Shown here in pieces: positions 20,820 through 26,474 of a DNA stretch of 64,000 bases. The stretch lies in contig OZ243916.1 of assembly GCA_965213675.1 (NCBI GenBank), forward strand, positions 3,616,001-3,680,000, written 5' to 3'. Source of the DNA: an uncultured Candidatus Binatia bacterium. Its GTDB lineage: Bacteria > Desulfobacterota > Binatia > UBA9968 > JAJDTQ01. Position 1 is the stretch's first letter, and every line of letters begins with the position of its first letter. A program made the position numbers and the translations under genes. Under the pieces are notes generated by a model that was not told the DNA's origin, did no database searches, and saw only the letters and a list, made by a program, of their open reading frames with translations.

Positions 20820-20895
20820 CAAAACACCTCCTGAACCCATTCATTTAGGCTTTCGGCTCCGTGATTGTCAAGAAAGAGCCGGTTTCGGTAGTGAG

Positions 20896-21762
20896 TCAGT
20901 TTGAATTCCTTTTCTTGTAGGTGCCACGCTTCCTGTCTTTCTCCGATTCCCGCGCTTCGATCAATTCTACTATGTCCGCCATATCCCATACCCGTTTCGT
21001 AATTCCAGCTTCCATTGCTGGGGTGACTCGAAGGGTCTGGTGAATCCGGCAAAAGTTGTAGTGCATGAAGTGAAGCGCCACCGCGTGTGCGTGGTTCTCG
21101 ACCTTCTTTGAAAAAGCGTTGGTCAGCCGCGTGAACCGGCGCATGGACATCCGCATGGTGAGATTCTGACGCTCCACATAGCTGGTGCTGATGTGCTTCG
21201 GGTCCGGATCGCCGGTGACGGTCTGCTGCTTGGCTCCGATGCACACTGCCGGGCTGTAGCGGTGTTCGGGGTCTGCCGCGCCGTACATCTTAACGAGTTG
21301 GGCAAAGTCAACGTCCGCTCCGAAAGCGCCCTCTACGGCTTCCAGGTGCGGCTTGTGACCGTCCGTGGTCATTTGCACTCGCTCGGCCACATCGTTCATG
21401 AAGTCAGTGGCGTATCCCGCGTCACGTACGCCCACGAGCCAGGAGATGGCCAGCCTGGAATCCGCGTCGATGGCCGTCCATGTCCAAACGTCGCCCGCGC
21501 CCGTAGGGGCGGCCTTCGCACTCGCCACGTTTTTTTGCTTGGAGTAGCAGAAGCTCCAGATTTCATCGCACTGGACGCGACGGCTGTTGAGACCGCGTAC
21601 ATAGGCGTCATGGTACCCTTGGCAAGCCGCCCCTGCATCGCTCAGGAGCTTCGCCGCCGTATTCTTGCTAGCACCTGTGACTCGGACGATAGCGCGGATC
21701 GCCATGCCCTCGCACAGGAGTTGCAGAATCTGTGCCCGTTCTTTGGGAGAGAGCTTGTTCAT
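20896..21762 (-). CDS. IS1-family DDE transposase
   Basis: N-terminal HTH ([15 protein letters not shown]); DDE residues in VQCDEIW, TTDG and [19 protein letters not shown]; stop codon inside the TIR. Confidence 0.88.
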
Positions 21763-21871
21763 GGTTTTGAATGTGGCCCACCCCTTGGCCCATGTCAAGC
21801 ATAATAGTCAGTTTAATGCATTGCCATAACTAAGCAATTGACGATGACGCTCCAACGTGCCATCTTCTGGC

Positions 21872-22168
21872 ATGAAGATCGTGTTCCTTGATGAGCGCCT
21901 CGCCCTAATCCGCACAGATCAAGCGGCAAAGACGAAACTGCCGTTTTCAGTAATCAAGTCGGCGAGGGAAAAGCTGATCATCCTTGAGGCGGCGCCGGAC
22001 GAAAGGGTGCTAAGGAACTGGAAGAGTCTTCGCTACGAGAAGCTCAAAGGTGACAGACAAGACCGGAGATCGATTCGACTGAATAATCAATGGCGTATTG
22101 TGTTCCAACTCGACAACCATACCGAACCGCCGACGATCACTGTGCTGGCGGTTGAGGACTACCACTAA
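21872..22168 (+). CDS. higB: HigB/RelE-family toxin (plasmid maintenance killer type)
   Basis: YEKLKGDR...SIRLNNQWRIVF...VEDYH signature; toxin upstream of antitoxin. Confidence 0.85.
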   Translation: MKIVFLDERLALIRTDQAAKTKLPFSVIKSAREKLIILEAAPDERVLRNWKSLRYEKLKGDRQDRRSIRLNNQWRIVFQLDNHTEPPTITVLAVEDYH

Positions 22169-22185
22169 ATCAGGGAGGCTGCGAC

Positions 22186-23301: not shown

Positions 23302-23464
23302 CTCGCAGCGGAGACGGCAGGTCGTAGGCGATTGCCTTCAGCTCAAGACAGACGTTGATGTCTACAACGACCAACACTACGACGATGAGCCGATTCCGCT
23401 GGAACTGGACTTCACGCGTGATGTCGAGGAACTCCAGTTGGGCCAGTCGGACGAAGCGGCCTAG
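23285..23464 (+). pseudogene. 59-aa probable remnant of the third gene that accompanies higBA-IrrE cassettes
   Basis: Reads MDGRTDSQRRRQVVGDCLQLKTDVDVYNDQHYDDEPIPLELDFTRDVEE...; resembles, from recall, the C-terminus of a longer conserved hypothetical protein; below the ORF-track cut-off. Confidence 0.5.
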
Positions 23465-23682
23465 TCTCGCTTCTTCCACCTCGTTTGGGCGGCGAGGCTT
23501 GCTATCTCCGACCGTTCTCCGGGCGATAACTTGGCCGCACGGGCTGGGCCACCCAGCTCGCCAGCCTTCCGGGCTCGCTTGGCTCGTTCGGTTTCCGCTG
23601 GCTCTTGGATGTCCCCGGTGGCGATGTCCACCATCAGCTTGGCGAGTTGGTTGGGATCGCGTGGGCGTTTCACTTTTGGCAT
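23461..23682 (-). CDS. Small basic IS-associated protein (73 aa, often auto-annotated as histone H1-like or RNA-binding)
   Basis: KRPRDPNQLAKLMVDIATG...GGPARAAKLSPGERSEIASLAAQTRW; first gene inside the right TIR; TTGACA on the minus strand at 23713-23718. Confidence 0.75.
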   Translation of the reverse strand: MPKVKRPRDPNQLAKLMVDIATGDIQEPAETERAKRARKAGELGGPARAAKLSPGERSEIASLAAQTRWKKRD

Positions 23683-23714
23683 AAAGGAAGGGTGCCCATG
23701 GCCCCCTGCGGATG

Positions 23715-26474
23715 TCAATGGGGCTCAGATTCAAACTGACCCATTACCCCGGCTTCGTTCCCCTGCCTCTCGCCACGATTCGATAAACCCGACCCCTGGG
23801 CGTGGAGCGAGCGGTCGGGGTGTTGCAACTCCCGCAGGCATTGCCCGGTGGCGGACGCGGCCACCCGCATCACATCCTCGGGCGTTCCGGCGGCCACCAC
23901 GCGGCCGCCGTTCTCCCCGCCCTCGGGGCCCAGGTCGACGATGTAGTCGGCGTGGCGCAGGAAATCCGGGTTGTGCTCGATGGCGATGACCGTGTGGCCG
24001 GCTTCCACCAGCCGGTGGAGGATCTCCAGCAGCCGGCTCACTTCCTCGAAGTGGAGGCCGGTGGTGGGCTCGTCAAACAGATAGAGGGCGTGGCCGCCGG
24101 GCCGCTTGCTCAACTCCCGCGCGAGTTTCACCCGTTGGGCCTCGCCGCCCGAAAGCGTCGTGGCCCGCTGCCCCAGCCGCAGGTAGCCCAGCCCCACCTG
24201 CCGCAAGGTCTCCAGCCGCGCCCGGATCAGCGGCACGTTGCCCAGCAGTTCCAGCGCTTCGGTGACGGTGAGGTCGAGTACGTCGGCGATGTTGGCGCCC
24301 TTGTAGCGGATCTCCAGGGTCTCGCGGTTGTACCGGCGCCCGCCGCAGACGTCGCAGGTCACGGATACGTCCGGGAGGAACTGCATCTCGATGTCCACCG
24401 TGCCGGCGCCCTGGCACGCTTCGCAGCGCCCTCCCGCCGCGTTGTGGGAGAAGCGCCCGGCGCCGTAGCCGCGCAACCGGGCCTCCGGCAAACGCGCGAA
24501 CAGGTTGCGCAAGGGGTCGAAGAGTCCGCCGTAGGTGGCCGGAGTGGAGCGGCTGCTGCGTCCGATGGAGCCCTGATCGACGTAGAGGACGCGGTCGAAG
24601 GCCTCGAGGCCGGTGACCGCGGTCGCGGATGCGCTCCCCGGCCGCGCCCGCCGGCGGGAACCCGCGCTGCTCCGACGCGCTGCGGTCTTGCCTTTGGAAG
24701 GCGTGGGCGCGCGTGACGCCGTCCTTGCGGCGTGGCGCGGTGCCGCCCCGTACAAGGTGTCCGCCACGAGGCTGCTCTTGCCCGAGCCAGATACCCCTGT
24801 CACGCAGGTCAGCGCCCCGATGGGGAAGTCCACGTCGAGGTTCTTCAGGTTGTGGCGCGTGGCGTTGCGGATGGAAATCGCGCCGTTGCCGGCGCGCCGC
24901 CGGGGAGAGGGCGCGGCCGTCGCCCCGGTCAGGTACGGTCCCGTGCGGGATGCGGGGTGTGCGCGGATCTCTTCCACCGACCCCGTCGCGAGCACCTCCC
25001 CTCCCTCGACACCCGCCCCCGGCCCCATGTCGATGACGTGGTCCGCGGCCAGGATCACGTCCCGGTCGTGCTCCACGACGAGCACGGTGTTGTCCGCGTC
25101 CTTGAGGTCCCGCAGCACCCCGAGGAGCCGCGCGGTGTCCCGCGGGTGGAGCCCGACCGTGGGTTCGTCGAGCACGTAGATGACCCCGGAGAGCCGCGCG
25201 CCGATATGAGCGGCCAGCCGGATCCTCTGGCACTCGCCCCCCGACAGGCTGTCGGACACGCGCGCCAGCGTCAGGTAACCCAGCTCCAGCCGCAGCAGCG
25301 CGGCGGTGCGCTCGCGGATTTCGCGCAGGACGTTCCCGGCCACCGCGGACTCGCGTGCCCCCAGGGTCAGACCTTGGATAAATCGCTGCAAGTCCTTCAG
25401 CGACAAAGCGGAAACCTGGGCGATGTCCAGTCCGCCGATCTTCACCAGGAGACTTTCCCGGCGCAGCCGGGCGCCGCGGCATGCGGCACAGGGGGGCGAA
25501 GCCTCCTTTGCGCCCGTGTCCGCGTCCGCGCCGTCCGCGCGCGCTCCCGTCGGCGCGTTCCCACGAGTCGGTCCGCGCGCCTGAACGCCGAGTCCATGAC
25601 ACGCCGGACAGGCCCCGTGCGGGCTGTTGAACGAAAAGAGCTGCGGCACGATCTCCGGGAACGGGATGCCGCAATCAAGACACGCGGCGCGTTGGCTGTA
25701 ACGGCGGAACTCCGTGCCGGCGCCGTCGCGTATTTCCACGGCCACGACCCCGTCGCCGTGTTCCAGGGCCACCTCCAGCGAGTCGGCGAGGCGCTTGGCG
25801 ACCCCCTCCCGCGCCACCAGCCGGTCCACCACCAACTCCGCCCTGCCCGGCGCAGGCGCGTGCGTCGCGTGGGCCGTCTCCGCCGCGGCGGCCCTCTCCG
25901 CGGCCTCCACAATCTCCGCGGTCTCCGCCACCTCGCCGTCCAGCCTGACACGCACGAATCCCGCGCGCATCACCCGTTGGATCTCGCGCCGGAACTCGTC
26001 CGCGTCGCCGCAACGCAAGGGGGCCAGCACCTCGATGCGCGCGCCCGCGGGCCGCTCCAGCACCGCGTCCACCATCTGCTGCACCGTGTGTACGACGATG
26101 GGCTTGCCGCAACCCAGGCAGTGAGGCCGCCCCACATGCGTGAACAGGAGCCGAAGGTGGTCGTGGATTTCCGTCAGCGTTCCCACCGTGGAACGGGGGT
26201 TCTCGTGGAAACGCCGTTGCGGCACCGCGATGGCCGGAGAAAGCCCGTGGATGGAATCCACATCGGCCCGCGCCAGCGGGTTGAGAAGCTGGCGCGCGTA
26301 GGTGGAAAGCGACTGCATGTAGTGCCGTTGTCCTTCCGCGTACACCGTGTCGAAGGCCAGCGACGACTTCCCCGATCCGGAAACCCCGGTGATGACCACC
26401 AGCTTTCCTCGGGGGATTTCGACGTCCACATTCTTGAGATTGTGTAGGCGCGCGCCTTTGACGACGATGTTCAT
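23715..26474 (-). CDS. uvrA: Excinuclease ABC subunit A homologue lacking the insertion domain
   Basis: GARLHNLKN, two GVSGSGKS Walker A motifs, [16 protein letters not shown], two DEPT motifs, zinc-binding CxxC pairs, [11 protein letters not shown]. Confidence 0.9.

Follow-up and report, generated by a model that had tools for sequence, protein, structure and literature searches.

The whole stretch of DNA analysed here (the window) comprises 64,000 nucleotides from the genome of an uncultured Candidatus Binatia bacterium, and the subject of this report is an element resembling the insertion sequence (IS) IS1, located at positions 20887–23748 of it. A transposase gene and a gene for a small basic protein of 73 amino acids (aa) lie near its two ends, both on the minus strand, and three open reading frames (ORFs) of the opposite orientation are enclosed between them. 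The features of the element and its borders, including the terminal inverted repeats (TIRs) and the target site duplication (TSD), are as follows.

20887–23748: whole IS1-like element, 2.9 kb, bounded by the TIRs, a TSD matching at 7/8 positions and a dip in G+C content
20879–20886, no strand: left copy of the TSD, CCGGTTTC, identical at 7/8 positions to 23749–23756
20887–20906, plus strand: TIR at the transposase end (right inverted repeat, IRR), no mismatches to the family motif GGTAGTGNNTCAGTTTGAA
20896–21765, minus strand: DDE transposase of 289 aa, encoded by a single ORF and starting with a helix-turn-helix (HTH) domain (Pfam HTH_23 and DDE_Tnp_IS1)
21766–21830, minus strand: transposase leader with a –35-like TTGACA at 21793–21798 and, directly upstream of it, a half-site at 21806–21816, TTAAACTGACT
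21857–22168, plus strand: HigB-like gene, first of the cassette (Pfam HigB-like_toxin, 37.2 bits, cut-off 27)
22186–23301, plus strand: HigA-like HTH domain fused to an ImmA/IrrE (M78) peptidase, 371 aa (Pfam HTH_3 and Peptidase_M78)
23285–23464, plus strand: truncated third gene of the cassette, 59 aa, aligning only with the C-terminal ~50 residues of 152–175-aa proteins of relatives
23461–23682, minus strand: small basic protein, 73 aa, with 671 relatives, the motif KRPRDPNQLAK and a C-terminal GGxARAxxLxxxxRxEIAxxAAxxRWKK
23683–23728, minus strand: small-gene leader; a –35-like TTGACA stands just inside the end (23713–23718)
23729–23748, minus strand: TIR at the small-gene end (left inverted repeat, IRL), one mismatch to GGTAGTGNNTCAGTTTGAA
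23749–23756, no strand: right copy of the TSD, CCGGCTTC, paired with 20879–20886

The arms 20887–20906 and 23729–23748 were recovered as the top inverted repeat within positions 20600–24000 (20 nt, 90% complementary, 18/20); the 20-bp TIRs and the 8-bp duplication with one mismatch proposed at first pass were both borne out. The ends start with GGTAGTG and GGTAATG, and the IRR overlaps the final transposase codons, N-S-N-stop. The G+C content is 0.505–0.627 within the element against about 0.65–0.74 in its flanks; a cysteine desulfurase gene and a uvrA-like gene stand on either side of the insertion. Among 12 genomes of the same genus searched, none carried the element at this site, and in 11 of them the two flanks lay about 24–200 bp apart. 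In the twelfth, G010, the same intergenic site is occupied by an unrelated 666-aa ORF (L099, G010:C1:2519800-2523400, 682-2682); the possibility that this 2.5-kb gap represents a second insertion of the same kind was rejected, since the ORF is unrelated and comes with neither the end motif nor a transposase. The ends, the TSD, the G+C dip and the absence from all 12 genomes of the genus together establish the feature as a real insertion with the bounds initially assigned to it. The genome that carries it has one copy. Contigs of the sequencing runs X1, X2 and X4 cover the whole element and none joins across it, although contigs drop rare variants and are hence silent on excision.

A scan of one genome per species yielded 560 candidate stretches, 545 of which were confirmed as relatives, with host records from about 9–10 phyla, and the 80 best-scoring loci (L003–L082) were compared further. 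In 64 of these 80 the motif scan found GGTAGTGNNTCAGTTTGAA inverted on both sides; in the majority of the 16 remaining loci a contig stops short of an end or one end is degenerate. Together with the window, this gave 65 complete elements of 1336–4790 bp (median 3241 bp). The 8-bp TSD could be tested in 64 of them, one further element lying at a contig edge: it is perfect in 51, matches at 7/8 positions in 7, the window included, and at no more than 5/8 in 6. The hidden Markov model (HMM) of the small protein matches an ORF in every one of the 65 complete elements, always adjoining the end distal to the transposase, and in 64 of the 65 this gene is on the transposase strand; L070 (3717-3944) is the sole complete element with the small gene inverted relative to the transposase. 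More than 400 bp separate the two genes in 63/65 elements, and nothing does in L066 and L033, the former being the minimal element of 1336 bp that consists of the small gene and the transposase only. The expectation that the small protein would co-occur with the transposase inside shared TIRs therefore held throughout the complete elements.

The reverse association was followed in a sample of 301 genomes of the host phylum, in which the small-protein profile gave 21 matches in 19 genomes and the transposase profile matched in 21 genomes. Among the 17 small-protein matches that have the N-terminal motif, 14 share contig and strand with a transposase match no more than about 3 kb away; of the other three, one is situated at the edge of its contig and two lack such a match. 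Three further matches to the C-terminal motif only and a fourth at positions 35–73 come without a transposase match on their contigs, one of them within a 346-aa frame. The closest relative among the genomes examined, which comes from the same order and stands outside the counts given above, is a 2944-bp element with two perfect ends (L100, G015:C1, 1364-4307). Its transposase is 76.5% and its small protein 75% identical to those of the window, its cargo consists of a peptidase gene (46% identical) and a third gene with no HigB-like gene, and no target duplication was found at its ends.

The DNA between the small gene and the transposase is highly variable, with 44 distinct gene sets in this slot among the 65 elements. 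On the maximum-likelihood tree of the transposases, the commonest cassette (18 rows) requires 15 changes against a mean of 15.8 after shuffling, a value reached or undercut in 193 of 500 shuffles, and five cargo labels taken jointly require 27 changes against 27.7. At the same time, the identities of the small proteins and of the transposases are correlated over 2080 pairs (r = 0.435; 0/999 permutations as high). In 12 pairwise comparisons of elements, mostly neighbours on the tree, nucleotide homology was confined to three stretches, that is, one end with about 80–95 bp next to it, the small gene, and a block made up of a leader of about 40–55 bp, the transposase and the other end. Since the cargo is scattered on the tree and the small protein co-diverges with the transposase, the small gene is inherited with the transposase and the cargo is not; as judged from these alignments and trees, the cargo is shown to have been exchanged many times relative to the chassis formed by the two genes and the ends. 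The first-pass annotation had taken the small gene and the transposase for a fixed chassis with an exchangeable payload, and neither an invariant cargo nor a clustering of cargo on the tree was found. The cargo slot that it placed between the two genes was likewise recovered, but this slot is not unique: more than 150 bp of DNA follow the transposase in 28/65 elements, and more than 250 bp precede the small gene in 23/65.

To define the content of the slots, 127 cargo ORFs of at least 100 aa from 64 loci were scanned jointly against PADLOC and Pfam. The PADLOC matches were to PD-Lambda-2_B (17), RmrA models (up to 11), capP (8), RmrT (4), PDC-M64C (4), SoFic (2), PDC-S24 (2) and PDC-S05 (2), and the Pfam tallies agree with them. 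Representative cargo contains the Pfam families HigB, HTH_3 with Peptidase_M78 (two types), P63C, RhuM, AAA/STAND NTPase, Fic, Abi_2 and PemK/MazF, as well as GNAT, SocA/Panacea, dCTP deaminase-like, ClpP-like, N6_N4 methylase with HNH, and BRO-N; many cargo ORFs have no family at all. By these profile matches the cargo is shown to consist mostly of toxin–antitoxin (TA) and anti-phage modules. In L029, the longest element (4790 bp), an IS66-family transposase (2697-4211) is nested in the cargo beside a methylase-HNH gene.

The outer parts of the elements also differ from one to another. The small gene starts at one of two typical distances from the end, either about 50 bp or about 215–320 bp, and a short ORF lies in this interval in L004, L015, L028, L038, L050, L055, L060, L061, L063, L073, L076, L079 and L081. 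In many elements with ends of the GTGTCTCAG type, the palindrome ATGCTTAGCGGAAAGCAT and GGAGG are followed by an ORF of 60–100 aa, behind which comes the small gene. These short ORFs are mutually unrelated, and the interval may represent another variable slot of very small size. In elements with no DNA beyond the transposase on its 3' side, the last transposase codons (NSN or ISN and the stop) lie within the end. Two end motifs were found back to back, 8 bp apart, in L015 (211-256), L023 (3785-3830) and L062 (3964-4009), where one element was apparently inserted beside the end of another. Additionally, six full-length transposase matches of lower score form a sister clade (L091–L096), 42–47% identical to the window transposase and with GGTAGTGTCCTAATTTG ends, in which no homologue of the small protein was detected. 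The cargo of two of its members was examined (L095, 894-4822; L096, 4013-7029) and amounts to 2–3 kb, consisting in L095 of a methylase gene and a second gene.

The elements of the IS1 family are known for GGnnnTG ends, duplications of 8–9 bp and a small gene, insA, inside one end; in classical IS1, insA and insB' are fused via a –1 frameshift, and a single-ORF IS1 subgroup is recognised in ISfinder, so that a single ORF does not exclude membership of the family. The window and the related loci agree with this description in their GGnnnTG-type ends (GGTAGTG/GGTAATG in the window, GGTAGTG in the relatives) and in their duplications of 8 bp. The insA/insB' frameshift is absent, the transposase being encoded by one uninterrupted ORF with its own HTH domain. 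Its conserved D67, D135 and E198 are retained. The window protein scores 24.0 bits against Pfam DDE_Tnp_IS1 (cut-off 24.1) and 51.1 bits against NCBIfam transpos_IS1 (cut-off 100). The ends and the duplication agree with the assignment to the IS1 family made in the earlier reading; the profile scores of this particular copy are weak and below the cut-offs. More than 8000 relatives of the transposase exist (all 8000 scored candidates passed), the best being 85% identical; they are labelled “IS1 family transposase” by their sources, and most of the close ones carry a precomputed PF03400. Annotated plasmid records with the same layout bear only this label and hypothetical proteins, with no name for the element.

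Four residues, RLSN, ahead of the DGH motif are missing from the window transposase and are present in all 24 aligned relatives. A contig of run X5 (873 bases, from another study and under another organism label) covers positions 20887–21705 with 45 differences over about 820 bases, and its 12 extra bases after position 21379 restore these four residues. This contig begins exactly at the end of the element.

As to the small protein, 671 of 688 candidates were accepted as relatives, all of them unnamed or “hypothetical” in their sources. Several transposase hits and small-protein hits pair up by an identical length of the longest contig (for example 2,120,320, 1,430,865 and 153,745 bases). One longer relative, of 312 aa, carries the source label “general stress protein YciG”, and “Histone H1 family protein” is the automatic name of the nearest Atlas clusters. 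The motif KRPRDPNQLAK (residues 5–15) is invariant in 24 aligned sequences, as are G41, G44, G45, A47-R48-A49, R57, A61, A64, A65, R68 and K71. None of the Pfam, NCBIfam and PADLOC families matches the protein, and a search for longer forms of it gave 11 proteins and no fusion with a transposase. When modelled alone it is predicted to form four helices, with a predicted local distance difference test (pLDDT) value of 73 and a predicted template modelling score of 0.32, and a fold search of the PDB with this model, which is only moderately confident, gave 0 matches at E ≤ 0.001. The predicted complex of the small protein and the transposase scored 0.81, against 0.00 for the best of three controls (both alignments used). 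Of 80 solved complexes 58 attained this mark, as did 2 of 110 mismatched pairs, a calibration that is rough here since own alignments were used. The runs share at least 53% of their contacts, and the pLDDT of the partner is at least 53. The contacts predicted are those of small-protein residues 4–24 with transposase residues 17–26, 38 and 41 (HTH domain), 67–72 (around the first conserved Asp), 95–109 and 224–236. The prediction supports binding of the transposase by the small protein through its invariant N-terminal helix. Originally proposed as an uncharacterised transposition or regulatory factor, the small protein does lack a known family, and its role in transposition is still a proposal, to which this predicted complex has now been added.

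A motif of the C-terminal type of the small protein is also found at the N-terminus of P63C and RhuM cargo proteins. Those starting with a GGxARAxxLxxxxRxxIA-like sequence are encoded, all on the minus strand, in L007 (4712-5989), L043 (4795-5979), L050 (4793-5890), L065 (4822-6033) and L079 (4849-5877), and in several of these elements ATGCTTGC/GCAAGCAT repeats are arrayed ahead of the transposase. The N-terminal motif may represent a DNA-binding module that the proteins share, and the repeats the sites that it recognises. The recurrence of the motif and the names YciG and Histone H1 are leads toward DNA binding, and no more.

A –35-like TTGACA precedes both genes of the chassis. The one at 23713–23718 stands where the first-pass annotation had put it, but the other is located at 21793–21798 on the minus strand, one position away from the coordinates given (21792–21797), and a strict sigma-70 scan called neither of them, finding one site against 1.2 in shuffled sequences. 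In many relatives TTGAC occurs in the small-gene leader at a similar place relative to the end. The leader block common to the relatives before the transposase ATG reads ...AAACTGACC-TTATGCTTGAC-N-AAGCATAAAAGTTCATATA..., and its AAACTGACC part repeats, with unchanged orientation, the inner half of the end on the transposase side, without the terminal GGTAGTG. The TIR-like core reported at first pass near 21805 was located as AGTCAGTTT at 21806–21814 and is the same as this leader half-site. Its form TTCAAACTGA is matched at 8/10 positions or better in 24/65 elements, nearly all at one position, against 5/65 on the opposite strand and 3/65 in a control region. An explanation of the internal half-site as the relic of a nested or tandem element was rejected, since its orientation fits neither composite end and the terminal GGTAGTG is absent. 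Moreover, a palindrome, ATGCTT-N6-AAGCAT, overlaps the transposase –35, and in elements with GTGTCTCAG-type ends it overlaps the opposite leader as well. The half-site by the transposase –35 is likely a binding site for the transposase serving autoregulation, and a promoter or operator role of the transposase leader is inferred from these motifs.

The cassette of the window resembles the anti-phage system PD-lambda-2, which is described as composed of a HigB-like gene (A), a HigA-like HTH domain fused to a C-terminal peptidase (B) and a third gene (C); B is toxic alone and is neutralised by A, whereas C is dispensable for neutralisation and required for defence (10.1101/2022.05.12.491691). The likely start of the HigB-like gene is the ATG at 21872, giving 98 aa, and its relatives align from residue 6; this protein has no PADLOC match at E ≤ 0.001. 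The HTH–M78 protein, with its HEIEH motif intact, matches PADLOC PD-Lambda-2_B nearly end to end (E 8.7e-50, 168 bits, profile positions 57–397 of 402), reaches 47.8 bits against NCBIfam antidote_HigA (cut-off 47.7) and matches RmrA weakly (E 7e-4). The third position is taken in 13 relatives by a protein of 152–175 aa, a full-length example of which (L008) matches no Pfam family and no PADLOC model at E ≤ 0.001. The order of the HigB-like, HTH-peptidase and third genes is that of PD-lambda-2, while the first gene of the window lacks a PADLOC match and the third is truncated. The higB-higA/IrrE-orf cassette opposite to the transposase had been read correctly in its orientation and first two genes; the 59-aa orf, however, is the C-terminal remnant of a gene for roughly 160 aa. 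Since the third gene is only a remnant and PD-lambda-2 C is required for defence, the window cassette, by analogy, probably keeps the toxic and neutralising pair and has lost defence.

The window copy looks decayed: its ends differ at 2/20 positions and its TSD at 1/8, four residues are missing from its transposase, its third cargo gene is cut short and the copy is single. It is for these reasons taken as old and probably decaying, and it is possibly immobile.

Taken as a whole, the element at 20887–23748 is, in our judgement with high probability, a lone copy, probably in decay, of a cargo-carrying IS (“transporter IS”) that belongs to a widespread single-ORF IS1-like subgroup. The comparisons show that this subgroup has a fixed chassis of two parts, one comprising the distal end, a short leader and the gene of roughly 73 aa, and the other the transposase with its conserved leader and the end next to it. 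The chassis inserts with 8-bp duplications and has unrelated gene sets between its parts or, less often, downstream of the transposase or ahead of the small gene. The small protein, by inference, would be a partner of the transposase whose N-terminal helix docks at the junction of HTH domain and catalytic core and whose basic C-terminal half probably contacts DNA, so as to assist or gate assembly of the transposition complex at the ends. Its gene would be transcribed from the end-proximal leader, in the position of insA in IS1, and the IRR-like half-site abutting the transposase –35 would be the likely site of autoregulation. A bolder version, which we put forward tentatively and rate somewhat below even, describes a distinct two-protein system of the IS1 superfamily with the KRPRDPNQLAK protein as an obligatory partner, the chassis ends acting as recombination handles by which defence and TA modules are swapped, and the whole operating as an anti-phage gene shuttle that spans phyla.

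Several observations weigh against the transporter-IS interpretation or parts of it. The 80 loci were taken from the top of the score list of 545 and are not a random sample, and the IS1 profile scores of this copy lie just below the Pfam and far below the NCBIfam cut-off. The evidence is all computational: the complex score is the model's own confidence, and the fold of the small protein is only moderately confident, with no solved structure alike. In the regulatory part, the half-site reaches 8/10 in just 24 of the 65 elements and the TTGACA sites of the window lack good –10 boxes; in the cassette, the third gene of relatives matches no PADLOC model of PD-lambda-2 at E ≤ 0.001, so that homology of the whole cassette, including that of this gene to component C, is only putative. 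Finally, the phylum sample contains two copies of the small gene without a transposase on their contigs, and the sister clade with GGTAGTGTCCTAATTTG ends carries cargo without a small gene, which makes cargo carriage independent of the small protein.

These last observations bear on what the small protein does, for which two other explanations were weighed. It might be a purely negative regulator that titrates or blocks the transposase in the manner of InsA of IS1 and is not required for transposition, an explanation that we consider doubtful, though more probable than the other rivals. The small gene is in the position of insA, as the first gene inside the end distal to the transposase, the predicted contacts cover the HTH domain and the region of the first catalytic Asp (17–26, 67–72) and would suit occlusion, and the sister clade manages with cargo and without the protein. 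However, retention of the gene in all 65 complete elements with an invariant 11-residue motif is more than expected of a brake that could be dispensed with, although element-level selection might keep such a brake in place. Moreover, the action of InsA rests on a DNA-binding domain that it shares with the transposase, whereas here the likeness of the two proteins is limited to a short KLSPxER stretch, with no N-terminal DNA-binding domain in common; the small protein may still act in an InsA-like way through protein contact. It is improbable, in turn, that the small protein plays no part in transposition and is a basic DNA-binding or nucleoid-type protein, a regulator or an anti-defence factor carried as a constant passenger by the end. 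The Histone H1 and YciG names would suit such a passenger, as would the occurrence of the C-terminal motif in P63C/RhuM cargo and in proteins with no transposase nearby, and the two copies of the gene that have no neighbouring transposase; but the small protein accompanies every cargo type and the cargo-free elements as well, it co-diverges with the transposase as the cargo does not, and the complex prediction passes against all three controls.

The remaining alternative is that no unit exists at all, and that an ordinary IS1-like element happens to lie beside a resident TA locus and a small gene, the outer TIR being a chance match or a solo end. The imperfect TSD and ends of the window copy and the TIR-like core between cargo and transposase could be read in this way. 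However, the internal site amounts to half of an end, is wrongly oriented and lacks the terminal GGTAGTG, the whole 2.9 kb are missing at the site in 12 of 12 genomes of the genus, and the same outer ends enclose the small gene, the cargo and the transposase in 64 other loci, with a perfect TSD in 51 of the 64 testable elements. This explanation can accordingly be given hardly any credence.

Compared with IS1 itself, the group is alike in its DDE transposase (weakly matching DDE_Tnp_IS1), in its GGTAGTG/GGTAATG ends, in the 8-bp duplication and in the small first gene inside one end. It differs in its size (1.3–4.8 kb against about 0.8 kb for IS1), in the single-ORF transposase with its own HTH domain, in a small protein without a domain shared with the transposase, and in the passengers between the two genes. 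Transporter IS are described, in a passage of the TnCentral preprint, as IS-like elements with inverted ends, a target duplication, one transposase and passenger genes inside, and are assigned there to the IS1595 and IS66 families (10.1101/2021.05.26.445724); according to a review of IS6, a number of IS families contain them. The element in the window agrees with this definition, having three ORFs with no function in transposition inside its ends, and so do the 63 of 65 elements with a slot longer than 400 bp. What sets the group apart from the transporter IS of IS1595 and IS66 is the conserved accessory gene in the chassis and a cargo that is mainly defence or TA. In elements of the Tn3 family, TA pairs are situated inside the transposition module and have been proposed to stabilise invasion (PMC7157771). 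The likeness lies in TA genes placed among the transposition genes, apart from other passengers; the Tn3-family elements have another transposase and are much larger, and the slot described here holds many unrelated modules and not TA alone. In RosmerTA, RmrA is an antitoxin with a protease domain that occurs with varied toxins (PMC10440598), and some of the relatives, though not the window, carry RmrT-like and HTH–M78 RmrA-like genes in the same slot. No publication describing IS1-like elements that combine this small gene with defence cargo was found in a search that left subscription papers, ISfinder, TnPedia and supplementary files outside its reach.

The group is a variation on the known kind of transporter IS, and the window copy is an ordinary decaying insertion. 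The window in itself is modest, containing one old single-copy insertion in which mobility has possibly and defence probably been lost. Passenger-carrying IS are known, limited in the TnCentral passage referred to above to IS1595 and IS66, and the elements described here point to a large IS1-like group of this kind. If the proposed interpretation is true, the small protein would represent a new protein that binds a transposase, and the family-less ORFs among the cargo would provide a catalogue of candidate new defence genes. The chassis would then be a simple vehicle for moving compact PD-lambda-2-like and RosmerTA-like cassettes between distant bacteria.

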